This document shows positions 12,730-63,751 of a stretch of 64,000 bases of DNA, piece after piece. The notes under the pieces were generated by a model. That model saw only the letters and a list, made by a program, of their open reading frames with translations, was not told the DNA's origin and made no database searches. Origin of the DNA: a virus; the IMG/VR virus record IMGVR_UViG_3300025679_000001, positions 1-64,000 of that record. One strand, 5' to 3'. Each line of letters starts with the position of its first letter. Position 1 is the stretch's first letter. Position numbers and translations under genes: made by a program.

Positions 12730-12790
12730 GTTCGGCGTCGTTCAATCTCCCCGATATTTTTACAGCCTTAACCCTCGGGGTTAGCGGGGT

Positions 12791-44431: not shown

Positions 44432-45052
44432 TCATTCTTCCTTCCACGGTGCGTCGCCGGAACTCGGGATGTTCTTCGGCCTAAACTTCTTGCCTAGGAC
44501 GCGCTCCCTGTCGTCGTAGTTGTCTATGAGCTCCAGCCTGTTCACGATTATGTTGAGCGCCACGGGGGCAAAATTGTTAACGTCGGCGCCGACGTTGATA
44601 GCTCGTCCCGGGATCTCGAACTTCCCATCAGGGCCCTCGAAGACGTTGTGAACGTGCCCGTACACGTGATAGGAGTTACGGTGGAAGCCATGCCACTCTA
44701 GGATCGGATAGTGATACATGTGAAAGTGTAGGCCGTGAACTTTGGTGATGAGCTCAGGATAGCACCCGGCCCACGGCAGCCTCTTGATCTTCGCGTCGTC
44801 GTGATTGCCGTGAATCAGGAACTTCTTGCCGTTGAGCGCCCTGAAGTAGAGTGACGGGTCCTTGGCCGCACGAAAAGAGAAGTCTCCGACGTGGTAGACC
44901 GTGTCGTTAGGCTTGACTCTCTTGTTCCAGTTCTCGATCAGGACCTCGTCCATCTCCTCGACGCTGGCGAAGGGGCGCTTCGAGTGCGCTATGATCTTCT
45001 CGTGCCCGAGATGGGTGTCGCTGGTGAAGTATACGCTGTCTGTGTTGCTCAT
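44432..45052 (-). CDS. calcineurin-like metallophosphoesterase
   Basis: 206-aa ORF. FTSDTHLGH, VGDF, HGNHD and YGHVHN are the full metallophosphoesterase motif set. Confidence 0.8.
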   Translation of the reverse strand: MSNTDSVYFTSDTHLGHEKIIAHSKRPFASVEEMDEVLIENWNKRVKPNDTVYHVGDFSFRAAKDPSLYFRALNGKKFLIHGNHDDAKIKRLPWAGCYPELITKVHGLHFHMYHYPILEWHGFHRNSYHVYGHVHNVFEGPDGKFEIPGRAINVGADVNNFAPVALNIIVNRLELIDNYDDRERVLGKKFRPKNIPSSGDAPWKEE

Positions 45053-46269
45053 GCTGCCTTCCTATCGCTTTTGATGACGCCGACCTCGGAGTGCGTGCTC
45101 TCTGGCGATCGGCCGATCGAGATGGTCTTGAAAAAGTGCGTACAGTCTGCATCCTCTACGAGCTTGGTGACACCGGCGAGGTCTGGAGTATATACGTCAC
45201 GAGTGTGCTTGTTGTTGACGAACTGGATTGCGTCGAGCTGGTCGCAGCAGGTCACGATGAGGTTCGACCTGGCGTTGCCGCTCGGACCGATAGGAAGCGA
45301 CGTTATAATGTCATGGTCGATTCTCTTGAAGACGGAGTGGTCGAGATGGCCAGTACGAAAGCCGCCCTGCCACTCGTTGTGAACGTTAGTCTCGTCCTTG
45401 AAGCGAGGAATGTACGTTGACCTCTCAAGATCACTGAGGTGTTCATGAGCGAGGGGCCCTTTGCCGTGGCGGGTCACGTATGCTCTGGTGACGTAGAACC
45501 ACTCACACTTGACCTTTGGACTAAGGCCAAACAGACCAGCCTTGTACACGTTGTGACCTCCAGTTCTCGACCTGGTCACGTGAGGCATGATTCCAGTCAC
45601 CTCGTCGAGACCGAGACCCTGCCCGGATTCGTAGATGACGCGCTTCGGGTCCCCGACGGCGCTCATGTCTATCTTCAGGCCCTCGATGATAGAGTCCGTC
45701 GACAGGAAGCTCAGGTCCGTCGGCCATACTGGTGCGTCCATGAACTTCTCGATCTCCTCTTTGGAGACGACGCCTATTAAAGCGAGACGCTTCTTATAGT
45801 AAGCTTTGATATTGTTAGAGTCAGCTCCACTGCCGATCTGAGCGTAGCGGGTAACGCACTCGTTGATCCCGTGCCCGCAAGAACCGTGACGGTTGGCACC
45901 GCGGGCCGTCTCGATCAACTGGTTCGCGATCATGTCGAGATTCGAGACGATCTTAGCGTGCTTGTGAACGTACACCTTGGGGGTGAAGCCGAACGTTTTC
46001 TCGAACGCCTCGATCTCCTTCTGGAGGAGGACCGGGTTGACGCAAAATGTGTGGTCGAGAACGGTAGCAGCACCTTTAGGAGCGCCGGAGCCGAGCTGGT
46101 TGAACACCACCCTAGAACCGTTGGTCTCGACGGTGTGCCCGGCCTGTGCTCCACCGTTGTGCTTAACGACGACGGTGTCCGAGTCAGAGAGCAGGTGTGT
46201 AGTTCGACCCTTTCCCTCGTCCCCGTAGTTGGCGCCGATGACGGCGAACACTTCCTCTAAAGCTGCCAT
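45049..46269 (-). CDS. adenylosuccinate synthetase family protein (divergent PurA-like; PurZ-type function not excluded)
   Basis: 406-aa ORF. P-loop GANYGDEGKGR, GGAQAGHT, TRHGKGPLAHE, GGFRTGHLD and TCCDQLD parallel PurA motifs. PurA GTTGRGIGPAY is replaced by HGSCGHGINEC. Confidence 0.7.
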   Translation of the reverse strand: MAALEEVFAVIGANYGDEGKGRTTHLLSDSDTVVVKHNGGAQAGHTVETNGSRVVFNQLGSGAPKGAATVLDHTFCVNPVLLQKEIEAFEKTFGFTPKVYVHKHAKIVSNLDMIANQLIETARGANRHGSCGHGINECVTRYAQIGSGADSNNIKAYYKKRLALIGVVSKEEIEKFMDAPVWPTDLSFLSTDSIIEGLKIDMSAVGDPKRVIYESGQGLGLDEVTGIMPHVTRSRTGGHNVYKAGLFGLSPKVKCEWFYVTRAYVTRHGKGPLAHEHLSDLERSTYIPRFKDETNVHNEWQGGFRTGHLDHSVFKRIDHDIITSLPIGPSGNARSNLIVTCCDQLDAIQFVNNKHTRDVYTPDLAGVTKLVEDADCTHFFKTISIGRSPESTHSEVGVIKSDRKAA

Positions 46270-48093: not shown

Positions 48094-48660
48094 TCACTTC
48101 TTGAAGAGGTCGTCGTACGCTTCTTTCTTGTCGATGGGCCTTCCGTCTTTGTCAAAGATGTCTCCTTTGTCGTGCCGGGACTTTCCGGTACCTTCTAGCG
48201 ATACGTTGATGGGCACTCCCCCGAAGGTCTGGGTCACCGAGCACGGGAGCCTAGTGTCCTTCGGGAACCTGAACATCACCTTCTTCCCGCTCTCGTAGAG
48301 AGTGCAGTAAAGTTCTATCGGCCAGTCTATAACACTGTCGAAGGGAATGTACACCTTGTATGTCATGTCGGGACCCCTGGTGATGATCCGGTAGATCTTC
48401 TGGGCGTACGCGAAACCAGGCGGTGGCGGCCTGGGCGGTGGCCGAGAAGGACTGCTGACCGTTGGCTTAGGAGAAGCTCGAGGAGGAGTGAACATCTCCT
48501 GAGCAGTCTGGTACGCTTCGTTCAACTGACGAAACTTGTCGACGTTGCCCCCGACGTCCGGATGGTGTTTCTTAGCGTGCTTCCTGAACGCCTTCTTCAC
48601 CTCGTCGAGGGAGGCGGCGTTCTTACAGCCTAGGATGTAGAGGGCTTCTGTCAGCGTCAT
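48094..48660 (-). CDS. J-domain (DnaJ-like) protein
   Basis: 188-aa ORF. LDEVKKAFRKHAKKHHPDVGGN (HPD), a Pro-rich linker and a beta-rich C-terminal domain. Confidence 0.75.
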   Translation of the reverse strand: MTLTEALYILGCKNAASLDEVKKAFRKHAKKHHPDVGGNVDKFRQLNEAYQTAQEMFTPPRASPKPTVSSPSRPPPRPPPPGFAYAQKIYRIITRGPDMTYKVYIPFDSVIDWPIELYCTLYESGKKVMFRFPKDTRLPCSVTQTFGGVPINVSLEGTGKSRHDKGDIFDKDGRPIDKKEAYDDLFKK

Positions 48661-49391: not shown

Positions 49392-49634
49392 TTACTGAAC
49401 GGCCTCCATGTAGATCCTTAAGAGCGCTTCCTCCTCGTCCAACTCCTCCTTGCGCTTCTTGCGCATCGCTACGAGCTTACGGATGATCTTGACGTCGAAG
49501 CCTAGAGACTTCGCCTCGAGATAGACTTGCTTAGTGTCCTCGGAGAGCGTCTTCTTCTCTTCCTCGAGACGCTCGATCCTCTCGACTAATGGCTTTAGCT
49601 GGGTTACGCCGCCTTTTTTGGTCGCTTCTTCCAT
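49392..49634 (-). CDS. gapR: GapR-like (DUF2312/UPF0335) DNA-binding protein
   Basis: 80-aa ORF. LKPLVERIERLEEEKKTLSEDTKQVYLEAKSLGFDVKIIRKLVAMRKK..EE..LL.IYMEA aligns with Caulobacter GapR ([48 protein letters not shown]). Confidence 0.8.
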   Translation of the reverse strand: MEEATKKGGVTQLKPLVERIERLEEEKKTLSEDTKQVYLEAKSLGFDVKIIRKLVAMRKKRKEELDEEEALLRIYMEAVQ

Positions 49635-51649: not shown

Positions 51650-52741
51650 TTATGCGAACCCAGTCTTGAAGCCCTGTTCCTTGAGCTCGCCGTTGAAGAT
51701 CTCAGCGAGGGCGTAGTCTTTCTTATCTCCGGGACGAGGTTTGTTGAGGACGCGGCATGCCTCGTCGACCTCCTTGCCGACGAGTTTGCGAAAGGGGATA
51801 ACGCCATAGCAGCGCCCGGGCCTCATGATGGCCGGATCGAAGTCAGCGACGTTGTTGGCGTTGGCGGTGATGATGATCTTCTTCTTGCTCGAGTTGACGA
51901 TGCCGTCGGAGACGTTGAGGAGCTTGGCGATAGTCTCGTTCTTAGAGGCCTCTCGAGACAGCAGCAGGACGTCGGCGTCCTCCATGATCATGAGGTTGTT
52001 TTCGCCGGAGAGGAAGGAGACGTAGAAGGAGTCGTCCTTCATCAGGTCAGTGTCGTAGGTGGTCACGGCGTTGAGGCTGTGACGAGTGATCAGGTCGGCG
52101 ATGAGGCTAGTCTTTCCGGTCCCCATCGGCCCGTTCATGATCAGAATGGACGCGCTGCTCTCCATGAAGGCGTCCATCGTCCCCTTGACGTCCTTGATGT
52201 AGGGGTACGCCTCCTGGTAGACTGGGCCGTGGTCCTTGAGGGGCAGGATGAGAGTAGTCATCTGGTTGCTCCTGGTGTAGGCCCAGGTGATCATCGTACT
52301 GTCGGGCTGGACGTAGGCGTCCAGCTTACTCTTTAGGTCGTTGAACAACTTCTCGTTGGACCCCCAGAAAGTTATGACGTAACGGTTGGACTTCTTTCCG
52401 ATCTTTATCGGATCGTCGTCTGAACTGCTGTCCGACCCTTCGATCTTCTGCTTGACGTGGATGACGCCATCCTTGTAGAAGGCTACGGCGTGGTGAGGGT
52501 TGTACTGCTTGAAGCTGAGGTACTTCTTCAGGTGAACGACGGGATTCACAGTGTAGGACGATTCAGACGAGAGACAAGTCACTTCTTTCATGTCGCCCAA
52601 GTGGGCCGAGATGTCATACTGGTATTCTTCGTAAAAGGAGTAGGTTTTGACCATTAGTTGTCCTGGTTTTTCTGATGCTATCATTGCAGCTATAGCTCTT
52701 TTAGAGCGTGCCCGATGTATGAATTTTAGGTAGGATCGCAT
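51650..52741 (-). CDS. AAA ATPase (BCS1-like classical clade)
   Basis: Start set at ATG 52741 behind GGAG (the track GTG 52771 is less likely). Walker A NGPMGTGKTS, Walker B LMIMEDAD, and LLNVSDG...ITANA...DPAIMRPGRC. Confidence 0.65.
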   Translation of the reverse strand: MRSYLKFIHRARSKRAIAAMIASEKPGQLMVKTYSFYEEYQYDISAHLGDMKEVTCLSSESSYTVNPVVHLKKYLSFKQYNPHHAVAFYKDGVIHVKQKIEGSDSSSDDDPIKIGKKSNRYVITFWGSNEKLFNDLKSKLDAYVQPDSTMITWAYTRSNQMTTLILPLKDHGPVYQEAYPYIKDVKGTMDAFMESSASILIMNGPMGTGKTSLIADLITRHSLNAVTTYDTDLMKDDSFYVSFLSGENNLMIMEDADVLLLSREASKNETIAKLLNVSDGIVNSSKKKIIITANANNVADFDPAIMRPGRCYGVIPFRKLVGKEVDEACRVLNKPRPGDKKDYALAEIFNGELKEQGFKTGFA

Positions 52742-52752
52742 TCTTGTTACTC

Positions 52753-52781
52753 CTACTACAATCCTACCCACTAGTTGTCAA
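52753..52781 (-). promoter_or_regulatory. possible promoter TTGACA-N17-TAGTAG
   Basis: TTGACA at 52781..52776. The -10 overlaps the RBS of the AAA gene, so function is doubtful. Confidence 0.25.
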
Positions 52782-53079
52782 CTGCGACGCCGAGCTTCAT
52801 GAGCTTAGACGTCATCGACGCCACGAAGATGAGAATCAGCGTGGTCAGGAGCCAGTCCTCGAACCCGGCGCTGACCCCAAACCACCAGGCGAACAGCCCG
52901 GCTATCCAGTGGCTGACGCAGTAAGTGCAGCTCAACCCTTCCCCTAAGAACCTAGTGAAGTCGGCTTGGGACTCGTCGACGAGCCACGACCTGATCCCGA
53001 AAGTGATGGGCGTGGCCGAGATCGTCATAGACGCCACCCCGACGGCGATGCCGACGAGGACGAGGTTCAGCACCAGCAA
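52771..53079 (-). CDS. DUF1360-like membrane protein
   Basis: 102-aa ORF. GEGLSCTYCVSHWIAGLFAWW matches the C..C.S.W motif between TM helices. Confidence 0.45.
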   Translation of the reverse strand: MLVLNLVLVGIAVGVASMTISATPITFGIRSWLVDESQADFTRFLGEGLSCTYCVSHWIAGLFAWWFGVSAGFEDWLLTTLILIFVASMTSKLMKLGVAVDN

Positions 53080-53261
53080 CCTCCGCGAGACTTGCTGCTG
53101 GTAATTTCCGATGCCTTTGGCTGCTTATTAACTTGAGCCGCCTTAACGTCGTTGGCCTTCTTACTCAGCTGCATCGCCTTGGCCGCGAAGTTAGAGCCTC
53201 CGAAGTCGCCAGACGAAGGTTTAGAAGGGTTACCCTTCGGCTTGGTCTTAAAGATGTTCAT
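53067..53261 (-). CDS. hypothetical protein
   Basis: 64-aa ORF, Lys/Ser-rich, ending CWC. Confidence 0.4.
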   Translation of the reverse strand: MNIFKTKPKGNPSKPSSGDFGGSNFAAKAMQLSKKANDVKAAQVNKQPKASEITSSKSRGGCWC

Positions 53262-53272
53262 TTTCTCTCTCC

Positions 53273-54682
53273 TTATGCTACGGCTCTATACTCGACCATC
53301 GAGCAACCCATAGCTGCTGCTGCTCTCTCAGCTTCTGTCTGGTGCGAGGTGATCTTCATCTCGCTCAGGACTCGGTCAGCGGCCCTCATCAGGTCCTCGT
53401 CACCGACGCCGGACGGTTTTTTAGCACCGGCCTTGATGTCGCGCTTGAGCGCGGTAGTCTTGGCGATCTCAACGATGTTGGCCGCCGAAGCTCCAGACAG
53501 GACGTCCCTGGCCGTGACGTAGGTCGTCTGACCGTCGTCGAGGAGCACTTCGAGGACCCTGCGGTTCTCGTCGTAGAGATGACGGGCGACCTTCTTACCA
53601 CAGGTGTTGGACTTGGTGCCGGCGAGGTTGATGTCGATGATCTTCTCGAACGTCGACTCGTCTGGTCGTCCGACGGTGATCTTACGGTCGATGCGCCCGT
53701 CGCGGACGACCGCCGGGTCGAGGTGGTGAGGCATGTTGGTGGCCAGTATCACCACGGCGCTGGAAGCCTGGAGGCCGTCCATCTCGGTCAGGAACGTCGG
53801 GACTATCGTCTGGTCCATGCCGGAGGTGTGGTTGGCACCCCTTCGACCGAGGACAGACTCAGCCTCGTCGATGAAGATGATGGCCTGGACGCCTGTCTTG
53901 ACGTGGTGTTCCCTGGCGTCGGAGAACAGGTTGCGGATGTTGCGCTCGGACTCACCAACGTACTTGTTCAGGATCTCTGGACCCTTGACGTAGATGAACT
54001 TGCCATTTCCTCCGGAGAGCTTGGCGACCTCGGTAGCCGCAGCTTTCCCGATCATGGTCTTGCCGCAGCCTGGAGGACCCTCGAGGAGGATTCCCTTCGG
54101 GACCTTGTAACCGTACTCAGTGTACAGGTGGGCGTGCTCGGTCTGTCCCACTATGAACTCGAGGAACTGTTCCTTGACGTCGTCGAGGCCTCCGATAGAC
54201 TCCCACTCTACGGGAACGAAGTCCTCCTCAGCTACGGTCGTGCCCTTCGACATTATGTCGGTGATTATCGTGCCTGATGCCACTAAGACCTGGTCGCCGA
54301 CTTCGGTGTCGAGGTCGAAGTCGTAGACGATCTTGGTGACAGAGTCAAGCTCTACTAAGCGCTCAGTCTTAGACAATACCTTGATGACGCGAGCAGCCAC
54401 GGTGACGAGCCCGTTACCCTTGAGCGTAGCGACGACGGCTCCCTGAACTACGGCGACCCTGGCGCCGAGCTTCAGCTTCTTGATAGTCTGTCCGCAGTGG
54501 GTTACGCCACCTCCGTCGGTCACCACTACGTACTTTTCAGTCGAGATTCCCTTGATAGTCGTTTCTGTAGAGAAGCCGATGATAAATCCCTGAACGGCGG
54601 GTGCTTCGGCGAGCTTCTGAGCAAAATCTTGAAACTCCTCGAGAGTTTCTTCGATCGACTGTTCTGTGTTCTTAGATGGCAT
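53273..54682 (-). CDS. classical-clade AAA+ unfoldase with OB-like N-domain (ARC/PAN/CDC48-like)
   Basis: 469-aa ORF with a GGAG RBS. GILLEGPPGCGKT, IIFIDEAESV, ILATNMPHHLDPAVVRDGRIDR. The N-terminal region is beta-rich (VVVTDGGGV...GARVAVVQGAVVA). Confidence 0.75.
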   Translation of the reverse strand: MPSKNTEQSIEETLEEFQDFAQKLAEAPAVQGFIIGFSTETTIKGISTEKYVVVTDGGGVTHCGQTIKKLKLGARVAVVQGAVVATLKGNGLVTVAARVIKVLSKTERLVELDSVTKIVYDFDLDTEVGDQVLVASGTIITDIMSKGTTVAEEDFVPVEWESIGGLDDVKEQFLEFIVGQTEHAHLYTEYGYKVPKGILLEGPPGCGKTMIGKAAATEVAKLSGGNGKFIYVKGPEILNKYVGESERNIRNLFSDAREHHVKTGVQAIIFIDEAESVLGRRGANHTSGMDQTIVPTFLTEMDGLQASSAVVILATNMPHHLDPAVVRDGRIDRKITVGRPDESTFEKIIDINLAGTKSNTCGKKVARHLYDENRRVLEVLLDDGQTTYVTARDVLSGASAANIVEIAKTTALKRDIKAGAKKPSGVGDEDLMRAADRVLSEMKITSHQTEAERAAAAMGCSMVEYRAVA

Positions 54683-54711
54683 GGTTTCTCCTTCGTTTTC
54701 TGATGCTAGGA

Positions 54712-54740
54712 TGTATATCTCAACGCTAAGTGAGTGTCAA
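54712..54740 (-). promoter_or_regulatory. sigma70-type promoter TTGACA-N17-TATACA
   Basis: TTGACA at 54740..54735, in the spacer between paralogue A4 and the AAA+ gene. Confidence 0.55.
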
Positions 54741-54744
54741 CTGG

Positions 54745-55164
54745 CTATTTGCGAGGCTGAGGATTCAACAACCAGTCCTTGGTGAGCGCTATCTCACCGC
54801 GAAGGACTCCGATCATCCTCTCCTGCTGGTCTTTCCTACTGACATAGGAGTAGGGCCAGCCGTCTGGGACGAAGAGGCTTAATCTTTCTTCATCTGTGAG
54901 TTCGAGGTACGTCTGAGCGTTACGTGCTACTGTTGACCCAAGAAAGTAATCATTGGAATCAGAATCGCTCTCTAATGCTTTTTTAAGAACTGCCCACCCT
55001 GCGATGCAGCACGCCGTATTACAGTCGTTGACGGCCTCCTGAGCAGTCTTCTTAGTAATCTTATTAGTATAGTGATTAGGAGAAACATACGCCATCATCT
55101 TCGTTTGACTAGAGTCAAGCTTCTCGATGAAGGCCGCCAGGTCGCACATCTTCTTGTAGTTCAT
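54745..55164 (-). CDS. family-A small Cys-motif protein (paralogue 4)
   Basis: 139 aa. MNYKKMCDLAAFIE...NDCNTACCIAGW...LELTDEERLSLFVP...QERMIGVLRGEIALTKDWL. Confidence 0.6.
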   Translation of the reverse strand: MNYKKMCDLAAFIEKLDSSQTKMMAYVSPNHYTNKITKKTAQEAVNDCNTACCIAGWAVLKKALESDSDSNDYFLGSTVARNAQTYLELTDEERLSLFVPDGWPYSYVSRKDQQERMIGVLRGEIALTKDWLLNPQPRK

Positions 55165-55874
55165 GGTTTAACTCCTGTCGCTGATTCTCCGACCGGCGTA
55201 CAGACGGACTGCAGCAGGTCTGGGTAGACGTTGAAGCCTCGCATGAAGAGTCTCATGCGAAAGCCGTACGAGGTGATCACACACCTCGACACAGTAATGG
55301 GGATCGCCGCGGCCACGTAGTCCGAGAAGAACGGCTCGCCGTGGTGGGCTATGTTCCAGGACTCGTTGAACCAGGTGGGCCTGATTCTGAAGTAGATCGA
55401 GTCGGCGTCCGAGCACGGGATCTTGTAGCACCCCTGCACCGAGTGGACGTTCTCCACCGGGTCGATCTCCTGGGAGTTGAAGAGGTACACCGCGTCGTCG
55501 CGCTTGACGGTCGTCAGGTACAACCCGCAGTCGAGGACGAACATGAGCATGGGAACGAGAAAAAACCAGGCGAAGACCGCCGAGCCGAAGAGGAAGGCAC
55601 CGGCCAGTGTCTTGTTGAAGTTTCCGGCATCGTCGTGGACCATCTTGTCCCAGAGCCAGAACCACCCCTTGATCACCTGGCGGAAAGGCCATGACGTGAC
55701 CCTCCACACCGGGTAGACGCGGGCCGTGATCCAGTCGAAGCCCTGCGTGATCTGGTATGTTCGCCTGGCGACTCGACCGTAGATCGACTGACCTTCCACC
55801 TTCTTGGTCACGCTGACGTCAGCGGCGACCTGGTCCCGGATCTTCTTGATCTTCTCAGTGACTGTCTCTTCCAT
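55161..55874 (-). CDS. membrane protein, unknown function
   Basis: Start set at ATG 55874 (MEETVTEK; TGATG coupling). TM helix AGAFLFGSAVFAWFFLVPMLMFVL. Confidence 0.5.
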   Translation of the reverse strand: MEETVTEKIKKIRDQVAADVSVTKKVEGQSIYGRVARRTYQITQGFDWITARVYPVWRVTSWPFRQVIKGWFWLWDKMVHDDAGNFNKTLAGAFLFGSAVFAWFFLVPMLMFVLDCGLYLTTVKRDDAVYLFNSQEIDPVENVHSVQGCYKIPCSDADSIYFRIRPTWFNESWNIAHHGEPFFSDYVAAAIPITVSRCVITSYGFRMRLFMRGFNVYPDLLQSVCTPVGESATGVKP

Positions 55875-56203
55875 CAGTGCAGGTGCTCCCATATCCTAGC
55901 TAAAGAGTTGAACACTGCTTCCTTAGCCTCCGGTGAGACCGAGGCGTACTGCCCTCTAGCAAAGCTCGTACCGTTCTTGTCCACGCCACTTACGTCAGTC
56001 AGCATCATCGCTCCGTTAGTGTCGAGGATCTTCTTGACGTGCAGCCATGCCTCTGGCGGCATCCGCGGGAAGTCCTGATAGCCTGGGATAGTAGCAGGAC
56101 CGGCGGGCATGATGTGCGTCCACTTCTCGATCTGGCTCTTCAGTTCCTCAAGGCTGTTGATTCCCTGTGAGGCGAACTGTTCCCTGATGGCGTCGGCGTT
56201 CAC
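55874..56203 (-). CDS. hypothetical protein
   Basis: Trimmed to GTG 56203 (GTGA coupling). 109 aa. Confidence 0.4.
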   Translation of the reverse strand: MNADAIREQFASQGINSLEELKSQIEKWTHIMPAGPATIPGYQDFPRMPPEAWLHVKKILDTNGAMMLTDVSGVDKNGTSFARGQYASVSPEAKEAVFNSLARIWEHLH

Positions 56204-56820
56204 TGGAACACGCTGACGGCGATGCGATGGTAGACGCTCTTCAGTCTGTTGAAGATGATAGTGCCGATCTCGACGACGACGTCGCGGCAGAACGTCCACA
56301 CTAAGGACCACGGCCACAAGAACATCCACGAGATGATTCGGGCCTTGAAGTCCCCGACGTACGGTGTAAAGTAAGATATGTTCAGGTCGTCGTAGCTAAC
56401 GAGACCCCTGATGATGTTGTTATTTTTTTCCAAGAGCGTTTTGTCCTTCGACCTGACGCGCTCGAGCTCGTTTACCCTGTCTCTTACAAATTGATTTACA
56501 TATTTGCCAAAGAGGCCGACTGGTGGATAGAGGACGCTAGTGTCATTCTTGTTGTCTCGCACCCACTGACGAGCTTTCCTCAGGTGCAGCCACCACTTGA
56601 TCACGGACCACACCGCTCCTGCTATAACGTACAGGACTACATAGAGTGGAGCAGCCTGCACGAAGTTCCAGACCTGGGCCCAACCATTAAGGTACACGTA
56701 CCCACACGTCACCGCCGCAATGAACACGACAAGCGGTGGCCAGTACTCGTACTCCATCAAAGAGATGATGATGAGACTAAACACTGCTACGATAGAAATG
56801 AGTAAAGAAAGGTTGTTCAT
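56200..56820 (-). CDS. multi-pass membrane protein
   Basis: 206-aa ORF with at least 3 TM segments. Confidence 0.5.
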   Translation of the reverse strand: MNNLSLLISIVAVFSLIIISLMEYEYWPPLVVFIAAVTCGYVYLNGWAQVWNFVQAAPLYVVLYVIAGAVWSVIKWWLHLRKARQWVRDNKNDTSVLYPPVGLFGKYVNQFVRDRVNELERVRSKDKTLLEKNNNIIRGLVSYDDLNISYFTPYVGDFKARIISWMFLWPWSLVWTFCRDVVVEIGTIIFNRLKSVYHRIAVSVFQ

Positions 56821-57026
56821 CTAAAGAATCCTCCATTGCATAGAAGTAAAAACAGAATGGCATGCGTCGCGAAGGCGCTCCACGCGTTGTAGTTTCCAGC
56901 TTTAGGTTCCCCGTGAAGCATGATGTAGCCTATAAAATTGAGCGAGAGCCAGACTACTAAGATCCACTGGGGAAAGCCCCAGTCGCTAACGTTGATGCTA
57001 GAATTGATCACTGTTATGGGCGTCAT
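56817..57026 (-). CDS. small membrane protein
   Basis: 69-aa ORF with 2 TM segments. Confidence 0.45.
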   Translation of the reverse strand: MTPITVINSSINVSDWGFPQWILVVWLSLNFIGYIMLHGEPKAGNYNAWSAFATHAILFLLLCNGGFFR

Positions 57027-59059
57027 TTTTCGTCCTCCGTCACGACCAGCTCGGTCGTCTTCTTGTCGTATACCACAGAAAGGTGCAGTATGTCACCAGG
57101 ATTCTTCGCGAGGGCCCTGTCAGCTATCGAGGACTCGAGAGTGGACCTCAGCCTGCCGGGGAGACCTCGCGCGCCTGTGCGCGGGTCGTAGTTCTTCTCG
57201 CAGAACTTCTTGACCTCACCGTCGTGCACCGTGAAGTTGATGTTCTCCACCGAGTACGCCGATATGATCAGGTTCAGTTCCCTAGTGACGATCTTCTCGA
57301 TCACCTCGACGCTGAGAGCGCTGAACTGGACGATGTCCCTCCTGCCGCCGAACCTGTTGAGGAACTCTGGGCGGTAGGTAGAGTCGAGCTCGGCCATGGT
57401 GCGCTCCTGGGCCTGCGCCACGGTGAGCTTCTTGTCGAGGTAGTGAGTCTGCCCGATGTTGGTGGTGCAGAGCACGTAGCAGTCCTCGAAAGAGACCACT
57501 CGGCCGACGTTGTCAGAGAGCCTGCCGTCGCCGAGGATCTGGAGGAAGATGTTGAAGACGTCAGGGTGAGCCTTCTCGATCTCGTCGAGGAGGAGGACGC
57601 ACACTGGCTGGCGCCTGATGCCGTTCGTCAAGATGCCGCCGGCGTCGAAGCCCTCGTAGCCGGGAGGGGCGCCAATGAGCTTCGCCACGGCATGCTTCTC
57701 CATGTACTCGGACATGTCGAGCCTGAACAGAGACTTCTCGTCGCCGAAGAGGTTGACCGCGAGAGCCTTCGCCATCTCGGTCTTGCCGACTCCGGACGGT
57801 CCGGTAAAGATGCAGGCGCCGAGGGGCTTCCCTCGGGTGCGACGACCGATGCGGGAAGTCTTGACCATCCCGACCACGTGCTTCACCGCTTCGTCCTGCC
57901 CGAATATCCTGGACAGCATGCTCGGCTCGAGGTTGCGGAGCTTCTCGCGCTCGTCCTCGTTGAGCTTGTCAGCCGGGATGCCGGAGATCCTGGAGAATTC
58001 TGAGGTGACGTCACCGCCGGACAGCTTCAGGTTCTTGTTGACCTTCTCGACGAAGTCGTCGTGCTGCTTCCTAGTGTCGGACAGCGACTCCTCGATCAGC
58101 TCGAGCTTCTTCTTGATCTCAGCTTTAGCAGGGTTGTCGACGCCGCCCTTTCCCGCCAGCTTGGCGAAGGCGCCTATCGTCTTAGACTTGGCCCCGGCGG
58201 CCGCGTCGTCGAGGCGCTCGTCCTCGGTGTTCAGCTCGTCCATAGCCTTGATGTAGTTGTCCTCGGTGACGCGGAGTTTGGACGTCCAGCCGTCCAGCGC
58301 AGTCTTGTCTGCCGGAGAGATCTTCTCGTGTGAGTCCATCTTATAAGTGGCCAGCGACCGGTCGAGAAGGTTGACGCTTCGCGACGGCTGCGCCCTGGTG
58401 CTCGTCGACCTGTACTTGTTCGTCAGGGCTATAGACTGCTCAACGGCCTCGTCGGTGACGGCGATCTTGTGGTACGCCGCGAGCTGGTCGGCCGAGTCCC
58501 TCACTATGGAGCGGAGAGGACCGTCGTTCGGCTCGGCGATCTCCATCACGGTGAACAGTTCCTGCATGTCGGAGTGCGACTTGATGACTGAGTCGAAGTG
58601 GTTGTCCTTGACCTCGAAGATCACCTGGGTCTTTCCAGTCTTGATACAGCTCATGAGCGAGTTCACGAAGTGCTCGTGCCCGTTCTTGCAGGCGGTGAGA
58701 AAGTCGTTGTAGTCCTCGACGATGAGGATAGACCCGGAGGTCTGCTCGAGAGCGGTGATGATCTTCGACCACTCTGAGTCGACGGTGTTGCCGTCGCTCG
58801 ACGAGAAGAGGCCGTCGGTGTCGAGCCAGAAGATCCTCTTGGAGGAGATGTCGAACGGCGCACCGTCAGTCTTCTTCCAGGCCCAGAGGCCGAGACAGAT
58901 GGTGGAGCACCCGACGCCTCCCGGCCCGGTGATGACGATAGAGTTCGCGGCGCGCCTGGTCAGGATCGACGCCATCTCCTTGAGCTCAGCGTCCCTGCCG
59001 ACGCAGCGAAAGTTAGGAGTGTCGCGGAGCTTGTCCGTACCCTTGATCATGTAGTTCAT
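57023..59059 (-). CDS. ClpB/ClpA-like two-module AAA+ chaperone with degenerate NBD1
   Basis: 678-aa ORF. NBD2 is intact: FTGPSGVGKTEMAKALA, LLLDEIEKAHPDVFNIFLQILGDGRLSD, GARGL. NBD1 Walker A reads GPGGVGCST (Lys to Cys). A coiled-coil middle region is present and there is no Clp N-domain. Confidence 0.8.
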   Translation of the reverse strand: MNYMIKGTDKLRDTPNFRCVGRDAELKEMASILTRRAANSIVITGPGGVGCSTICLGLWAWKKTDGAPFDISSKRIFWLDTDGLFSSSDGNTVDSEWSKIITALEQTSGSILIVEDYNDFLTACKNGHEHFVNSLMSCIKTGKTQVIFEVKDNHFDSVIKSHSDMQELFTVMEIAEPNDGPLRSIVRDSADQLAAYHKIAVTDEAVEQSIALTNKYRSTSTRAQPSRSVNLLDRSLATYKMDSHEKISPADKTALDGWTSKLRVTEDNYIKAMDELNTEDERLDDAAAGAKSKTIGAFAKLAGKGGVDNPAKAEIKKKLELIEESLSDTRKQHDDFVEKVNKNLKLSGGDVTSEFSRISGIPADKLNEDEREKLRNLEPSMLSRIFGQDEAVKHVVGMVKTSRIGRRTRGKPLGACIFTGPSGVGKTEMAKALAVNLFGDEKSLFRLDMSEYMEKHAVAKLIGAPPGYEGFDAGGILTNGIRRQPVCVLLLDEIEKAHPDVFNIFLQILGDGRLSDNVGRVVSFEDCYVLCTTNIGQTHYLDKKLTVAQAQERTMAELDSTYRPEFLNRFGGRRDIVQFSALSVEVIEKIVTRELNLIISAYSVENINFTVHDGEVKKFCEKNYDPRTGARGLPGRLRSTLESSIADRALAKNPGDILHLSVVYDKKTTELVVTEDEK

Positions 59060-59145
59060 GGTGCTACCGCGACGAGAGGTATACGATGCCTAAGAATATG
59101 ATCCCCGGTATGGCCAGCACGGCGACGTCCGGCCACGTAGTGGCT

Positions 59146-59394
59146 TCAGCTAACATTAACATTAACATCAATTTCCTCCTTGAGCTGGCAGTTTGGGTAG
59201 GCCTCCAGCGGTTGCCTTCTAGCTACGATATTATCATCTTTGACGCGCTTGTCAAGGTGTGCCTTGATGTCGTCTAACACACGGCCACACTCGAACCCTT
59301 TCGGACCGCAGAGGAGATAGGCACAGCACTCGTGTCCCATGCCTATCCCGCAGCGCTTCACTTCTTCTTTGGTGAGGAGGAGTTCCTTGCTCAT
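59146..59394 (-). CDS. Cys-rich small protein
   Basis: 82-aa ORF. CGIGMGHECCAYLLCGPKGFECG...YPNC. Confidence 0.45.
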   Translation of the reverse strand: MSKELLLTKEEVKRCGIGMGHECCAYLLCGPKGFECGRVLDDIKAHLDKRVKDDNIVARRQPLEAYPNCQLKEEIDVNVNVS

Positions 59395-61076
59395 CAGCGT
59401 GTACCGATGTTACCGAACGGGCTCTTCGTCTTCGCCGCGGCTTTCTTGTCAGCGACAGTCGTCGTTGCTGGCTTTCCGATCGTGTCGGAGTTCACGGCGT
59501 ACGCCTTGCGAGTAGAATTGCGCACGGCCTCGGCTTCCTTCGCGATCTCGTCCATCTTGACCCGCATCGACTCGATGCCCTCCTTGGTGATCTCGGTGGC
59601 TGAGGTCACGACCTGGCCGTAGCCCTGAAGGTCGTCGATAACCTTGGACAGCGCGTCGGCCTGCTCGTTGACGCCCATGGCCTGACGGATGGCTTCCTTC
59701 TGCGTCACAGCGTTGGTCGACTGTCGCATCTGGTCCATAGTGGTTCTGGCCATCGCTGACGACTCGCCGAGAGCGGCCATGGACACCGCCTGGAGGACGG
59801 TGCTGAGCCTGTCAGCAACGCCGGCCACTCCCTGCGAGTGCAGGATGCGGGCCGTGTTCATGTTGTCGGTGTTGTTGTCTCGCATGCCCTTAACGCGGAT
59901 CGCCTGGGTGGTGAGGTCGGCGTAGGTCGACATCGTGTCGACGGTGCTCGCGTCGACGGCCTTGATGTGCTGGTCGATCGAGAGCTTCTCGGACTCGCGA
60001 GTCATCTTGGCGATGGCGTCCTCGTCGGCCGGCCCTTCGGCCACCTTCTTGAGGAGGTCGCGGTTGTTGGCGTCGGCGGTCTTGAGCCCTTCCTGCATGA
60101 TGGCGTAGACGCCGGTCATGGAGTCGTTGGCGTCGGCGAGGGACTCGATCTGGCCGTTCATCTGGGTCAGGTGGTCGCGGATGCTGCCGATGCGGGACTT
60201 AGAGGTCTGCACGAAGTTGAGGGCCGTGGCGACTAAGTTCTGCTGGCGCTCCTTGTGCTCCTCGGACGAGATGTCCAAGAGCTCGCGGAGCTTCGCCTTC
60301 TGCTCGGCGAACTCGGGGTCATCGTCCTCGGGGGGCTTGGCCGAAGCTTCGAGAGTGACGGCCTCGCCGTTGAGCTTCCCGAGCTGCTCGTTGTCCTGGG
60401 CGATCGCTGCCTCCTCCCGGGCGATGTCCTCCTTGACGCTCTGCGGCAGTCCGCCGAACCCGAACAGGCCGCGCTTCGTCTTGAGGGCGGCGATTTGTTT
60501 CTGCTTCTCGGAGATGCTGTTGCTGATGTCGCCGACCTTGCCGTCGATCTCAGCCAAGTTCTTGCGACGCTCGTCCTCTTTCTGCCTGTCCTCGACGATA
60601 GCTTTGAAGGCGTCGAGCGTCATGCCGGACGTGCGGAGCTTGTAGACCGCGTCGATGATGTCGGTGAGAGGGCCCATGCCGTTCTCGAAGTCGATGAGGC
60701 CCTGGTTCATCTGGGAGTAGGTGTCCTTCAGCTCGGAGAAGGTGCCGGAGTCCGTGAGCTGGATGATCTCGGTCGCCATCGTCTCGCGCACGTTCTGCAG
60801 GTACTCCTTGAAGAGCTCCTGCTGGGCTACGTGCTCGCGGGACTCCTCCTTAGTACCAGTGAACGTCATCAGGGAGGCGAACTGCTTAGCTTTCTCCTTG
60901 GCGGAGAGCTTCTCGTTGAAGAGCACCTGGTAGAAGGGGTTGCTCTCGATGTCGGCGAAGCGGGGGTCGGCCACTACTGTGGACGTCTGTGTCTTCGCCT
61001 TTCCTCGCGCCTTCTGCACGTCGGCGAGGATCTCGTCGGCGGTAGTCCTTAACTTAGTCTTAGCTGATGTAGCCAT
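59394..61076 (-). CDS. long alpha-helical/coiled-coil protein
   Basis: 560-aa ORF, rich in A/E/K/Q/D/T, with no TM segment. The tentative TelA-like impression is unverified. Confidence 0.5.
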   Translation of the reverse strand: MATSAKTKLRTTADEILADVQKARGKAKTQTSTVVADPRFADIESNPFYQVLFNEKLSAKEKAKQFASLMTFTGTKEESREHVAQQELFKEYLQNVRETMATEIIQLTDSGTFSELKDTYSQMNQGLIDFENGMGPLTDIIDAVYKLRTSGMTLDAFKAIVEDRQKEDERRKNLAEIDGKVGDISNSISEKQKQIAALKTKRGLFGFGGLPQSVKEDIAREEAAIAQDNEQLGKLNGEAVTLEASAKPPEDDDPEFAEQKAKLRELLDISSEEHKERQQNLVATALNFVQTSKSRIGSIRDHLTQMNGQIESLADANDSMTGVYAIMQEGLKTADANNRDLLKKVAEGPADEDAIAKMTRESEKLSIDQHIKAVDASTVDTMSTYADLTTQAIRVKGMRDNNTDNMNTARILHSQGVAGVADRLSTVLQAVSMAALGESSAMARTTMDQMRQSTNAVTQKEAIRQAMGVNEQADALSKVIDDLQGYGQVVTSATEITKEGIESMRVKMDEIAKEAEAVRNSTRKAYAVNSDTIGKPATTTVADKKAAAKTKSPFGNIGTR

Positions 61077-61077
61077 G

Positions 61078-61542
61078 TTACTCTCCTTCGTTTTCAGTTA
61101 TTCTCGGTCGAGGGTTGTGCAGCCAACCGTAGTTAAGTAAGATCTCACCTCGCAGGACTCCCATCATCCTCTCGCGCTGGATTTTTTTGTCCATCGGTCT
61201 GGACCATCCGTCCGGGGTGAACAGCATGCTGCTTTCAAGGCCGGTAAGCTCCAACTCCTTTGCTGCAAAATCTCTGATATTATTAGGTAGATCGAAGACG
61301 TCGTCTGTAGTATCACCAGCAAAACCTTTTCCGTGCTTCAGCGCTGTCCATCCAGCTATGCAACAAGCAGTCCCGCAGTCATTAACTATAGCGTCCATTT
61401 CTTCCCGTGACCTATATCTCTTTGCTTGCGCCACTAAGACGTCGTGTGGAAATTTATTCTTGTCCTTGGGAAGGAACGTAGCCATGTCCACTTCCTTGTC
61501 GGCGATGAAGGTCGCCAGGTCGCACATCTTCTTATAGTTCAT
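61078..61542 (-). CDS. family-A small Cys-motif protein (paralogue 5)
   Basis: 154 aa. MNYKKMCDLATFIA...NDCGTACCIAGW...LELTGLESSMLFTP...RERMMGVLRGEILLNYGWL. Confidence 0.6.
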   Translation of the reverse strand: MNYKKMCDLATFIADKEVDMATFLPKDKNKFPHDVLVAQAKRYRSREEMDAIVNDCGTACCIAGWTALKHGKGFAGDTTDDVFDLPNNIRDFAAKELELTGLESSMLFTPDGWSRPMDKKIQRERMMGVLRGEILLNYGWLHNPRPRITENEGE

Positions 61543-61562
61543 AAGATTCTCCTCTGAAAAGC

Positions 61563-61591
61563 CCTATACACTAATTTTTTTAGACTGTAAA
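61563..61591 (-). promoter_or_regulatory. sigma70-type promoter TTTACA-N17-TATAGG
   Basis: TTTACA at 61591..61586. The spacer ends ttagtg. About 20 nt upstream of the GAGGAG RBS of ATG 61542. Confidence 0.5.
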
Positions 61592-61706
61592 CAGAAAAAC
61601 GGTCGTCGACCTTGTCCGCTATATGATAGTGTAGGGGACGGAGCTTCAGGACGACTTTGATTGCTTCCGCCGAGAGAGCCGTTTTCCCAGCGTGGATTAA
61701 ACCCCC

Positions 61707-61747
61707 AAAAAAGGTGGCCGGGCGCGAGGAGTCTCGCAGACCCGGCC
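61707..61747 (-). terminator. intrinsic terminator
   Basis: Stem 61716..61722/61741..61747 (7 bp) plus an inner 5 bp (61724..61728/61733..61737). On the minus strand it is followed by ACC-UUUUUU. Confidence 0.7.
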
Positions 61748-61790
61748 CGCGTTCCGGCCGAAGGAGGAGTTCTACCGGAGCGCGTTTTCG

Positions 61791-62732
61791 TTAAAGAGTC
61801 TTGACTCCCGGTGTGCTGTCGGTAGAGCCAGACTTCTTAGCAACGAGGCTCTTCGTAGCATCGGCCACGGCGATCGCGGTCGTTCCCGTCCACGCGCCGA
61901 CGACAGTGTCGTGGTCCTCACCGTTAACGATGCGGATGGTCGAGACGATCACCTCGGGGAGGGCCTTCAAATCTTTGAGGATGATGAGGTTCTGACCGAG
62001 CTTGGCCCAGTTCTTGCGCATGGCGTCCTCACCAGCGCGGCCGGCGTGACTTCCTTCCATGACGACGACGTGGAAGCAGTTGTACATCCTGGACGCCGCC
62101 TCGAAGAGGGTCATGTAGTCCATGTCCTCGGAGACCGGTTCGTCGCTTCCGAAGACCGTCTGGATTTCCTGCTTGGTCAGCTTGGTCGGCATGTTCTCGT
62201 CGCCGACGGTGAAGAGGAAGCCCTTCTGACCGCGCTTCTCGAAGGCGTCAGTCTTCGTCTTGAAGGCCGCCATGTAGAGGGGCAGATCATAGGACTCGGT
62301 GTTGTTGCCGCCGCCGTTGCCGGTGACGTACATCTTCTCGAGCTGCTTCACAGCTTCCATGTCGGACTCGAACTGCGAGACCTGGAGAGCCCGGGCGCCG
62401 ACGAACTTAACGTCGTCGAAGAACATAGTCATGATCGCGGGGTCCTCGACGGCTTTCTTGTCGACGAGCTCCTCGATGATGACGTTGAACTTTTTCATCG
62501 CCTCGTAGATAACGTCACCCATCGACCCGGTGCAGTCGAGGGCGAGGATGATCGGGAGCGACTTCGGGTTCAACACGGAGTCGCGGGCCTCGCGGACCTT
62601 AATGTTCTCCGGCTTGTGCCCGGAGTCGATGGTCGTAGACTTGAGGATGTCGTGGAGGCCCGTGGACGTCGCGTCCCCGCGCATCGTACTGTGGCTCATG
62701 TAGGCCGTAGACGAAAATCTTGAGTTACCCAT
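61791..62732 (-). CDS. von Willebrand factor A (vWA) domain protein
   Basis: 313-aa ORF. MIDAS elements ILALDCTGSMGD, GNGGGNNTES and FLFTVGDE. Confidence 0.7.
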   Translation of the reverse strand: MGNSRFSSTAYMSHSTMRGDATSTGLHDILKSTTIDSGHKPENIKVREARDSVLNPKSLPIILALDCTGSMGDVIYEAMKKFNVIIEELVDKKAVEDPAIMTMFFDDVKFVGARALQVSQFESDMEAVKQLEKMYVTGNGGGNNTESYDLPLYMAAFKTKTDAFEKRGQKGFLFTVGDENMPTKLTKQEIQTVFGSDEPVSEDMDYMTLFEAASRMYNCFHVVVMEGSHAGRAGEDAMRKNWAKLGQNLIILKDLKALPEVIVSTIRIVNGEDHDTVVGAWTGTTAIAVADATKSLVAKKSGSTDSTPGVKTL

Positions 62733-62737
62733 AACTA

Positions 62738-63751
62738 TTACTTCTCCTTCTTATACGCCTCCGCGGCCGGGTGGCCGAAGTCGACGAATTTCCTGACGCC
62801 GAAAGCGACCTCTCTGGCGCGCTCCCACTTAAAGTACTCCTGCACGGCGTCGTCGCAGCTCGGCGTGCTCAACCAGATGTCCATCGCTCGCGGAACGTCC
62901 TTGACGCCCTTGAGGCAGTACCTGGCGAGAGCCTTGACGCTCTCGAGGTCGATCCTAACATCAGCTCTCTTCTTTGTAAACAGCGAGTTTGGGACTGACG
63001 AGTGGACCCAGTTCGGGACCCTCTCTACTGTGGCGTTCCTAGGCTTGAAGAACCACCAACCTCCGACGACCTGGACGCTGTGCTTCTCGGTGTTGACGAA
63101 GACGTTCTGCGGGGTGAGGGCGAGGTGGACGATCTTCTGGGTGGACAAGAAGCACGTGAAGTCGCACAGGGATGACACGAGCCAAGCGACCGACCTTGGG
63201 TCCCACGGGCCCCACTTATTGACTACGTCCTCGAGAGCAGCAGAGGCTGCGTCCCTCTCTATAGTGACGAGCTGCTTTCCGTTTATCAGGGGGCTCTTGA
63301 AGAGTCGAGTCTCTACCGGGACGTACTTCCTAGCGTTCTCGAGAATGTTGTCCGGGGCGTAGCTGATGATGTTGTTCATCAGGTCGACGCCCTTTCTTAC
63401 GAAGGGTTCGTTCGGGAGGACACAAGCTAAGTGCGTTTCGGACACGTACTCGTCACCGAGGTCGCCGTTCCTCTTCTTGAGGTAACTATAAGCTACAGCA
63501 GCCGACGACGTGGTGAAGGTGACCGTGTTCTCACCGAAGCCAGTCCAGACCCCGGACTCCATCTCCTTGACGGCGCGCTCCCTCATCTTATTTAAGTTCG
63601 TGAAAGCGTCATTAGCCCGAGGGTCCCTGGACCTGTCGGGGTGAACGACTTTGGCGAGGTTCTTGAACCTCACATCGACGTCTACTGAGGTGAGGCACCC
63701 GGCGAAGATCCGGTGTATCTCTGGAGAGAGTGCGGTGTCGATGTCTGTCAT
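62738..63751 (-). CDS. J-domain protein fused to a kinase-like (probably catalytically dead) domain
   Basis: 337-aa ORF. The N-terminus FKNLAKVVHPDRSRDPRANDAFTNLNKM carries the HPD motif. The C-terminal part IVHLALTPQNVFV...VVGGWWF mimics the HRDLKPEN / DFG region with the catalytic Asp replaced. Confidence 0.55.
   Translation of the reverse strand: MTDIDTALSPEIHRIFAGCLTSVDVDVRFKNLAKVVHPDRSRDPRANDAFTNLNKMRERAVKEMESGVWTGFGENTVTFTTSSAAVAYSYLKKRNGDLGDEYVSETHLACVLPNEPFVRKGVDLMNNIISYAPDNILENARKYVPVETRLFKSPLINGKQLVTIERDAASAALEDVVNKWGPWDPRSVAWLVSSLCDFTCFLSTQKIVHLALTPQNVFVNTEKHSVQVVGGWWFFKPRNATVERVPNWVHSSVPNSLFTKKRADVRIDLESVKALARYCLKGVKDVPRAMDIWLSTPSCDDAVQEYFKWERAREVAFGVRKFVDFGHPAAEAYKKEK

Follow-up and report, generated by a model that had tools for sequence, protein, structure and literature searches.

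Whether a dense run of chaperone-like and AAA+ genes in a phage genome encodes one machine, or several that happen to be neighbours, is the question raised by a 12-kb minus-strand island at positions 51650 to 63751 of the virus record IMGVR_UViG_3300025679_000001 (IMG/VR). The DNA that was analysed, hereafter the window, comprises positions 1 to 64,000 of that record. An earlier note, made from the sequence alone, proposed that the island is a single dedicated system for protein remodelling or host takeover. The open reading frames (ORFs) that it listed are all present on the minus strand at the positions it gave, and nearly all of its domain identities hold in Pfam, NCBIfam, profile, and AlphaFold2 (AF2)/Foldseek analyses. 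The single system itself was broken up by a synteny check in relatives. The reading that we favour, and consider reasonably probable as a whole, is that the 12-kb island is a mosaic of unrelated modules lying side by side, not one conserved system, and that one of these modules, a triad of genes, would encode a client-specific AAA+ machine at the membrane, unlike a general DnaK-coupled disaggregase. The genes of the triad are the following:

59394..61076, minus strand: all-helical protein, 560 amino acids (aa), first gene of the conserved triad
57023..59059, minus strand: Hsp100/ClpB-like ATPase, 678 aa (Pfam AAA_2 3.8e-53, AAA_lid_9, ClpB_D2-small)
55161..55892, minus strand: triad membrane protein, ~240 aa; a single hydrophobic stretch and, in the C-terminal domain, four Cys are conserved

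Phage synteny was followed by tblastn of every island protein against related loci, and only these three proteins travel together across relatives. The triad occurs, compactly arranged and in the same order, in Agrobacterium phage Atu_ph07 (gp493, gp492, gp488) and seven IMG/VR contigs, as well as in 12 further IMG/VR loci (contigs of 24–608 kb) and a 572-kb contig (L185); the membrane protein gene lies downstream of the ATPase gene in 12 of these 13 further huge-phage loci. Atu_ph07 and about 15 other huge-phage contigs keep, of the island genes, the triad alone. In the two closest relatives, contigs L098 and L099, whose ATPases are 64–66% identical to that of the window, the gene order is a J-domain pseudokinase (J1), a von Willebrand factor A (vWA) protein, a TAXI-like protein, the helical protein, the ClpB-like ATPase, and the membrane protein, followed by GapR and dCMP deaminase. 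The syntenic interval of L098 and L099 contains no ARC-like AAA+, BCS1-like AAA+, DUF1360, second J-domain (J2), or Cys-rich gene and no member of the small paralogue families A and B. Because both relatives do without the extra AAA+ genes, DUF1360, J2, and families A and B, the island does not hold together as the conserved block that a single system would predict. The J1/vWA pair is also gone in more distant relatives.

Two genes of these relatives are missing from the window: in L098, a DUF6745 protein (11671-12879) separates the helical protein from the ATPase, and in both, a TAXI/NMT1_3-like solute-binding protein comes after vWA (L098 8706-9632, L099 8399-9334). Gene turnover around the conserved modules is thus rapid.

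The triad is not confined to phages. A scan of 185,579 species-representative bacterial genomes returned 87 loci, 80 of which were kept for neighbourhood counts. These loci are mostly in Alpha- and Gammaproteobacteria, with others in Deltaproteobacteria, Verrucomicrobiota, and Bacteroidota, and the cultured carriers include Pokkaliibacter, Motilimonas, Mameliella, Plastoroseomonas, and Taklimakanibacter. The ClpB-like gene lies directly 3′ of the helical-protein gene in 77 of the 80 loci, and the triad membrane protein is found (E ≤ 1e-5) in at least 43 of them. No J-protein, vWA, or other island gene occurs within 6 kb in any of the 80. The three genes make up an operon both on a 7.1-Mb contig and in Taklimakanibacter lacteus, and there it is flanked by a MoxR/BatA cluster, DUF1285, NUDIX, and CCA-adding enzyme genes on one side and by SDR and FolB genes on the other. 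When the ATPases are placed in a neighbour-joining tree, those of phages are on long branches next to the Hyphomicrobiales/Dongia clade.

The patchy spread of the triad suggests horizontal transfer, and it is also one of the points for a rival explanation, in which the triad would act at the membrane as a conflict system, used by phages for superinfection exclusion or anti-defence and by bacteria for abortive or anti-phage defence. On a 9.9-kb phage-like contig (sample 3300059473), the triad lies directly 3′ of Gad2 (anti-Gabija), T7 gp5.9-like (RecBCD inhibitor), and ligase-like genes, a setting that hints at an early or anti-defence neighbourhood. The window triad likewise stands among early/middle genes with no late-promoter motif, and the second AAA+ domain of the ATPase resembles the PADLOC candidates PDC-M37B and DolB. 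However, the PADLOC matches are limited to generic AAA_2, and neither the helical nor the membrane protein has a meaningful match to a defence family. Moreover, housekeeping genes in the same order surround the triad in the two bacterial neighbourhoods examined (three loci, i.e., two contigs sharing one order and T. lacteus), and the triad has no nuclease, toxin, or sensor domain. We therefore regard a conflict system as unlikely. Assignment to a known defence system was rejected on the same grounds, as PADLOC matched generic AAA domains only.

The ATPase departs from a canonical ClpB in several features. Its alignment to E. coli ClpB spans residues 172-852, with ~18 residues ahead of the first AAA+ domain (D1); since the alignment begins only at ClpB residue 172, the N-domain is absent. 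The D1 Walker A and Walker B motifs read GPGGVGCST and ILIVED, respectively, and the degeneracy is family-wide: in all of the 80 family members examined, C, V, or S stands in place of the Walker A Lys, and the Walker B motif reads [ED]D. There is no aromatic residue at the D1 pore-loop position and thus no pore Tyr. The second domain (D2) has canonical motifs (GPSGVGKTE, LLLDEIEKA), retains the Arg-finger, sensor-1, and sensor-2 motifs, and carries a family-specific GYEG pore loop in which the Tyr is nearly invariant; in its sequence, D2 is active-looking. A gap opposite the ClpP-docking loop (AGF) of ClpC, RFAGFGG, indicates that no ClpP loop is present. About 100 residues separate the D1 lid from D2, and over ClpB residues 172-852 the protein is 25 residues shorter.

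Family models place the protein in the same way. The NCBIfam ClpB equivalog TIGR03346 gives 377.8 bits against a cut-off of 1232, and the ClpA, ClpK, ClpG, and TssH models also score below their curated cut-offs, even though TssH aligns along the whole protein (residues 5-652, 5e-93). Because all these scores lie far under the curated cut-offs, the ATPase is not filed as ClpB. Judged by its motifs, it is a distinct Hsp100 subfamily with a putative pseudo-ATPase first ring, not a canonical ClpB.

These features bear on a second rival explanation, close to the earlier note, in which the whole island would be one proteostasis or host-takeover system: two J-proteins would bring host DnaK to a ClpB-type disaggregase, the other unfoldases would assist, and the proteome of the infected cell or of the phage would be kept soluble. 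The density of the locus, with three AAA+ and two J-proteins in 16 kb, invites this explanation, as does the alignment of the ATPase with ClpB over D1, the M-region, and D2 without a ClpP loop. The HPD motif is intact in both J-domains, so that recruitment of host Hsp70, as the earlier note had it, is a fair inference. Similar pairings have been seen or proposed elsewhere: in Phosso, a different jumbo rhizobiophage, a DnaJ-like gene lies two genes away from a Clp-family ATPase, and aggregate clearance was proposed for ClpB gp492 and DnaJ gp293 of Atu_ph07 (PMC6102473). However, the components are not syntenic in relatives, the ATPase lacks the N-domain and has a D1 pseudo-ATPase without pore Tyr, and the bacterial triads have no J-protein near them. 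The partner of J1/vWA elsewhere is a PurA-like enzyme, a terminator separates the pair from the triad, and gp293 of Atu_ph07 lies about 200 genes from gp492. A single proteostasis island thus seems improbable to us. Of the ClpB-type disaggregase partnered by DnaK that the earlier note described, the ClpB-like domains remain; the family-wide D1 degeneracy, the missing N-domain, and the bacterial operons free of J-proteins within 6 kb weaken the rest. Its observation that the window encodes neither Hsp70 nor a protease subunit agrees with our scan, as no Hsp70, ClpP, or 20S proteasome subunit was seen among the window genes scanned.

The helical protein is the most constant companion of the ATPase. 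No Pfam, NCBIfam, or PDB relative was found. Of its 475 homologues, many are ~50% identical over the full length and lie on contigs of up to 7.1 Mb, in proteobacterial chromosomes. The AF2 model consists entirely of long helices with disordered ends, with a predicted local distance difference test score (pLDDT) of 73, and at the C-terminus a conserved [SN]PF motif comes after a disordered linker rich in Ala, Pro, and Lys. Two candidate identities were tried and rejected. For a PspA/ESCRT-III, SNARE, or ClyA-type toxin fold, Foldseek searches against PDB and BFVD returned only generic helical bundles with template modelling (TM) scores < 0.26. The idea of a tellurite-resistance (Ter) set, with the helical protein as TelA and the vWA protein as TerY/TerF, failed since neither TelA nor a significant fold match was found: TelA (PF05816) is not among the 25 commonest listed families (of 69 at E ≤ 1) for 31 helical-protein members, and the structural resemblance to a phage ‘tellurite resistance protein’ is non-significant (rank 26, TM 0.18–0.24).

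The third protein has a hydrophobic stretch of ~35 aa at residues 95-129, and the conserved Cys are at positions 149, 154, 198, and 225. Membership in EI24/CysZ (PF07264) was rejected, as the window protein has no match, the best bacterial homologue reaches 26.4 bits against a cut-off of 32, and the six of 40 members with E < 0.01 are all sub-threshold. In phage operons, one to three small genes, mostly encoding membrane proteins, have been added between the ATPase and this protein. The small genes inside the window operon are the following:

59146..59394, minus strand: Cys-rich protein, 82 aa, 6 Cys, between the helical protein and the ATPase; a lineage-specific insert
56817..57026, minus strand: hydrophobic protein, 69 aa; start overlaps the ATPase stop by 4 bp
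56200..56820, minus strand: membrane protein, 206 aa, with hydrophobic N-terminal segments (hydropathy)
55874..56203, minus strand: soluble protein, 109 aa, without a hydrophobic segment; gene call in contig L003

The Cys-rich protein has no family match, and no homologue was found in L098 or L099. The 69-aa protein, which has no hydrophobic segment above the hydropathy threshold used, is a phage-specific insert that differs between relatives; homologues of the 206-aa protein adjoin the triad in contig L007 and in L099. The earlier note counted four membrane proteins at 55161..57026, of which three are indeed hydrophobic and the 109-aa product (55874-56203) is soluble. Its suggestion of a possibly membrane-associated system is in keeping with the place of the ClpB-like gene in an operon rich in membrane proteins.

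Taken together, a helical partner with a conserved flexible tail, a single active-looking ring, and a membrane anchor in a translationally coupled operon lead us to propose a client-specific membrane AAA+ machine. In the first module (55161-61076), the membrane protein would tether the triad to the inner membrane, where the helical protein may form an assembly. The hexameric ATPase, working with its D2 ring alone, would grip the flexible C-terminal [SN]PF tail of the helical protein and then unfold or disassemble it as its own client. Phage copies would have acquired the extra small membrane proteins inside the operon.

Several points weigh against this proposal. The membrane protein is detected in just 43 of the 80 genome loci; in most of the remaining loci, the gene that follows is of comparable size but diverged. 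Foldseek gives no informative fold match for the helical protein, and we infer its role as client, as well as what the PF motif does and how the membrane protein is oriented in the membrane. The stretch of M-domain length is kept in the ATPase, which leaves room for coupling to DnaK. Finally, J1-vWA lies directly upstream of the triad in the window, L098, and L099, which could reflect a functional link specific to this lineage and not chance adjacency.

A more far-reaching form of the same proposal would make the triad a self-contained membrane-remodelling or scaffold-recycling machine, similar to NSF/SNARE or Vps4/ESCRT-III, captured by giant phages from Alphaproteobacteria and elaborated with further membrane subunits, so that the inner membrane of the host would be reshaped during infection. 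We offer this form only tentatively.

The transcription layout of the island separates the triad from its neighbours and bears on the time of its expression. The elements in question are the following:

61707..61747, minus strand: intrinsic-terminator-like hairpin and U-tract 3′ of the vWA gene, ending the J1-vWA unit
54712..54740, minus strand: sigma-70-like promoter site TTGACA-17-TATACA in the 62-bp gap before the ARC-like gene; a consensus match only, read from the sequence
13856, 32214, 41732, and 42295, minus strand: copies of the T4-type late-promoter motif TATAAATA, all outside the island

The hairpin is GC-rich, and UUUUUU comes after it; for the 101-nt stretch, the folding energy is −47.9 kcal/mol (z = −3.4), which none of 200 shuffles equals. 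Start/stop overlaps run from gene to gene from the ATPase stop through the family B gene at 54745. The four exact copies of TATAAATA in the window compare with 0.17 expected by chance, and none lies inside the island. From the terminator, the promoter site, the gene overlaps, and the lack of a late motif, the three minus-strand transcription units that the earlier note drew are plausible, and expression of the island is probably not late.

This layout is relevant to a further rival explanation, which takes the AAA+ proteins as morphogenetic chaperones for membrane-proximal virion assembly. The assembly site of T4-like proheads is the inner membrane, and the AAA+ genes of the island are interleaved with membrane proteins. 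For the BCS1, ClpA, and ClpX proteins that jumbo phages encode, roles in assembly have also been proposed (PMC7824862). In contrast, the genes stand among nucleotide-metabolism and replication genes with sigma-70-like, not late-type, promoter motifs, and the triad is also found in bacterial chromosomes without phage genes nearby. We consider a morphogenetic role highly doubtful.

The second module (61791-63751) comprises the J1/vWA pair, whose usual third member is displaced in the window:

62738..63751, minus strand: J1, J-domain (HPD) and kinase-like domain without the catalytic Asp, 337 aa; a J-pseudokinase
61791..62732, minus strand: vWA/metal ion-dependent adhesion site (MIDAS)-fold protein, 313 aa; conserved partner of the J-pseudokinase (phrog_2971, 1.4e-33)
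45049..46269, minus strand: divergent PurA-like adenylosuccinate-synthetase paralogue (NCBIfam PurA 2.4e-31, 109 bits against a cut-off of 402)

The J-domain of J1 alone is weak in Pfam (E = 0.001), and a profile of five J1 orthologues matches many solved J-domains at about 1e-6. All five orthologues have HPD, as do 150 of 152 members of the wider family, which has 583 cluster representatives at E ≤ 1e-30; through this motif, the J-pseudokinase may recruit host Hsp70. The C-terminal half is kinase-like, and its profile weakly matches VRK3 (0.0033) and PknB (0.045) over the catalytic-loop region. The canonical HxD...N loop and DFG are absent: J1 reads HLALTPQN, the position of the catalytic Asp is G in 57, A in 54, and D in 29 of the 152 family members, and an invariant GGW replaces DFG.

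The vWA protein has almost no sequence signal (Pfam VWA_4, E = 0.02); its AF2 model, made with a 41-sequence alignment, has a pLDDT of 90.2 and a predicted TM score of 0.90. Foldseek returned 123 PDB matches at E ≤ 1e-3, and the 50 listed are integrin beta-I or vWA domains, with probability 1.0 and TM of about 0.45 to integrin beta-I and SpaC vWA domains. The residues of a predicted MIDAS (DxSxS...T...D) are present in the 41 sequences, with D66, S70, and G177-D178-E179 invariant and T68 nearly so.

Neighbourhoods of this family differ from those of the triad. The vWA family is found in Rhizobium TM30-like, Vibrio Va1-like, and cluster C mycobacteriophages, with a PurA-like gene adjoining in each. 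Across 80 IMG/VR loci, a PurA-like gene lies ≤ 6 kb from the vWA homologue in 69, and it is within 1.5 kb downstream in 50 of the 72 testable loci; the J-pseudokinase is directly upstream of vWA in 34 of 74. The ClpB triad is near vWA solely in the sister contig of the window. In the window, the PurA-like gene is displaced by 15.5 kb from the vWA gene, its usual neighbour elsewhere. The order J-pseudokinase, vWA, PurA-like is seen on an Agrobacterium vitis chromosome and on a 189-kb phage contig. By these neighbourhoods, the J1/vWA pair is assigned to a separate, widespread module that is mainly phage-borne, with one bacterial example seen, and whose usual partner is a PurA-like gene, not a Clp ATPase. 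The module sometimes includes a TAXI-like solute-binding protein, and in A. vitis it adjoins an NrtR-like regulator and a MoxR/DUF5682/WGR-DUF4132 cluster. No source was found for the label ‘2-aminooxy adenylosuccinate synthetase’, which two RefSeq phages carry.

The remaining genes of the island and its border are mostly lineage-specific:

53273..54682, minus strand: classical-clade AAA+ ATPase, ARC-like, 469 aa (Pfam AAA 2.3e-34)
52771..53079, minus strand: ~100-aa membrane protein (hydropathy), borderline DUF1360 (E = 4.6e-4, 20.6 bits against a cut-off of 21)
51650..52741, minus strand: BCS1-like AAA+ ATPase, start uncertain (52771, 52741, or 52654) (Pfam AAA 6.5e-10; phrog_14322, 2.8e-39)
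48094..48660, minus strand: J2, second J-domain protein, 188 aa (Pfam DnaJ 5.8e-11, HPD present)
61078..61542, minus strand: family B, 154 aa, opening the second unit (phrog_889; 41% identical to 54745-55164)
54745..55164, minus strand: family B, 139 aa, closing the second unit
~38273-38641, ~19592-19963, and ~19196-19564, minus strand: further family B copies, the last two in tandem
51248-51637 and 48756-49109: family A, two copies with a related Cys/Ala-rich motif

The synteny comparison shows the ARC-like AAA+, and the BCS1-like AAA+ with DUF1360, to be lineage-specific insertions at this position (modules three and four). For the ARC-like protein, NCBIfam pup_AAA (Mpa/ARC) is the best full-length family (6e-69, residues 11-452, 233 bits against a cut-off of 505), and the solved relatives include Cdc48, PAN, and Mpa; the N-terminal 165 aa alone has no match among solved structures, and the C-terminus, ...EYRAVA, lacks an HbYX or GQYL tail. 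Among solved structures, the best match of the BCS1-like protein is BCS1 (5.6e-8, residues 161-321 against 177-347); the N-terminal 160 aa of the BCS1-like protein is unmatched, and no hydrophobic segment above the threshold used is present in it. As to the family A and B paralogues that the earlier note placed at the unit borders, two family B copies do lie there, and the family as a whole consists of five paralogues of ~140–150 aa spread over the window, with a conserved ‘NDC.TACCIAGW’ motif.

The wider setting places the island. The window matches a 175.8-kb metagenomic contig (European Nucleotide Archive ERZ27294387, k141_829760). T4-core genes are present in the window or contig (gp5, gp53, gp2, baseplate proteins, gp32, gp59, and RNase H), and nucleotide-metabolism and related genes surround the island (ribonucleotide reductase, the PurA-like enzyme, dCMP deaminase, a ligase domain, and GapR). 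No close DNA-level relative was found by megablast of the phage collection, in which the sole match is 68 bp in Sinorhizobium phage Phosso, within a different Clp gene. By protein, the nearest cultured relative is Atu_ph07 (490 kb), whose gp492 is 44% identical to the ClpB-like protein. As part of the mosaic reading, and with the same measured confidence, we take the phage to be a jumbo myovirus that is Atu_ph07-like and has a T4 core, with the island in its early/middle region. Beside the island lies the following gene:

49392-49634, minus strand: GapR-like DNA-binding protein (PF10073, 1.2e-27), with its syntenic position kept in both closest relatives

GapR is a nucleoid protein of Alphaproteobacteria, and the gene is consistent with an alphaproteobacterial host. 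Elsewhere, the window encodes an RtcB RNA ligase (20097-21275, minus strand) and a PhoH-like ATPase (24631-25320, minus strand), and several glycosyltransferase, SIS, and PMM genes lie at about 28–31 kb.

Chaperone-like genes in jumbo phages are already known from two studies. In the genome report of Atu_ph07, gp492 was annotated as ClpB, and the removal of aggregates together with DnaJ gp293 was speculated upon (Attai et al. 2018, PMC6102473). DnaJ, BCS1, and ClpA/ClpX were described in group 2.2 jumbo phages, with assembly roles proposed (Iyer et al. 2021, PMC7824862). In the searchable literature, we met with no account that treats the triad as a unit or reports the D1 degeneracy or the bacterial counterpart, nor with one of the J-pseudokinase/vWA/PurA-like module.

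The analysis has several consequences. First, the ‘ClpB’ genes of Atu_ph07-like and other giant phages, read so far as general disaggregases, appear to be a distinct Hsp100 subfamily with two dedicated partners. Second, the same triad operon sits unannotated in cultured Proteobacteria, which offers a testable three-protein system in tractable organisms, i.e., Atu_ph07 on Agrobacterium, Mameliella alba, Pokkaliibacter plantistimulans, and Plastoroseomonas hellenica. Third, in large phages, the cluster C mycobacteriophages among them, the J-pseudokinase/vWA/PurA-like module may couple an enzyme of nucleotide metabolism to the recruitment of Hsp70. More generally, it can mislead to take a gene-dense ‘functional island’ of a jumbo phage for one system; in this case, synteny breaks the island up into independent parts.

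In comparison with known systems, the ATPase shares with ClpB/Hsp104 the tandem AAA+ modules, AAA_lid_9, ClpB_D2-small, a helical stretch of M-domain length, and the lack of a ClpP-docking loop. We note three differences. First, ClpB/Hsp104 have an N-domain. Second, their D1 catalytic residues and pore Tyr are intact, and the pore loops are KYRG in D1 and GYVG in D2, whereas the D2 loop of the triad ATPase is GYEG. Third, unlike ClpB, the ATPase gene always comes with a helical protein of its own, and in most loci a gene for a membrane protein was detected downstream. As an AAA+ protein that may be dedicated to dismantling one helical or coiled-coil partner at the membrane, it resembles ClpV (TssH) acting on the sheath of type VI secretion systems (T6SS), NSF acting on SNAREs, and Vps4 acting on ESCRT-III. 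The likeness is by analogy only, as Foldseek and family scans found no T6SS, SNARE, or ESCRT-III homology. NSF has one active and one degenerate ring, as in the triad ATPase, whereas ClpV recognises its client via an N-domain, which the triad ATPase lacks.

Among phages, Atu_ph07 carries the orthologous triad (gp493-gp492-...-gp488; 39%, 44%, and 33% identity) in the same order; additional small genes separate the ATPase from the membrane protein, and the triad products are annotated as hypothetical, ‘ClpB, ATP-dependent protease’, and hypothetical, respectively. It differs in having no J1, vWA, ARC-like, or BCS1-like gene within 12 kb, and it is not among the phages of the vWA family. In Phosso (PV764938, 115–139 kb), the arrangement is different: a 778-aa Clp-family ATPase lies by a peptide deformylase and a DnaJ-like gene, with a second Clp-family gene 10 kb off. 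Mpa/ARC/PAN and mitochondrial BCS1 are the best family or structure matches of the two single-ring AAA+ proteins of the window, both below curated cut-offs. For the J1/vWA pair, the counterpart is the gp251 ‘kinase’ of mycobacteriophages Bxz1/Cali, a homologue of J1 (5e-15) that likewise combines a J-domain (VHPD) with a kinase-like domain and has the same Asp-to-Ala change (HGAITPDN). Cali gp251 lies directly upstream of the vWA homologue gp252, as J1 does of vWA in the window; the PurA-like gp254 follows two genes downstream in Cali, whereas in the window the PurA-like gene is 15.5 kb off, with the ClpB-like triad in between.

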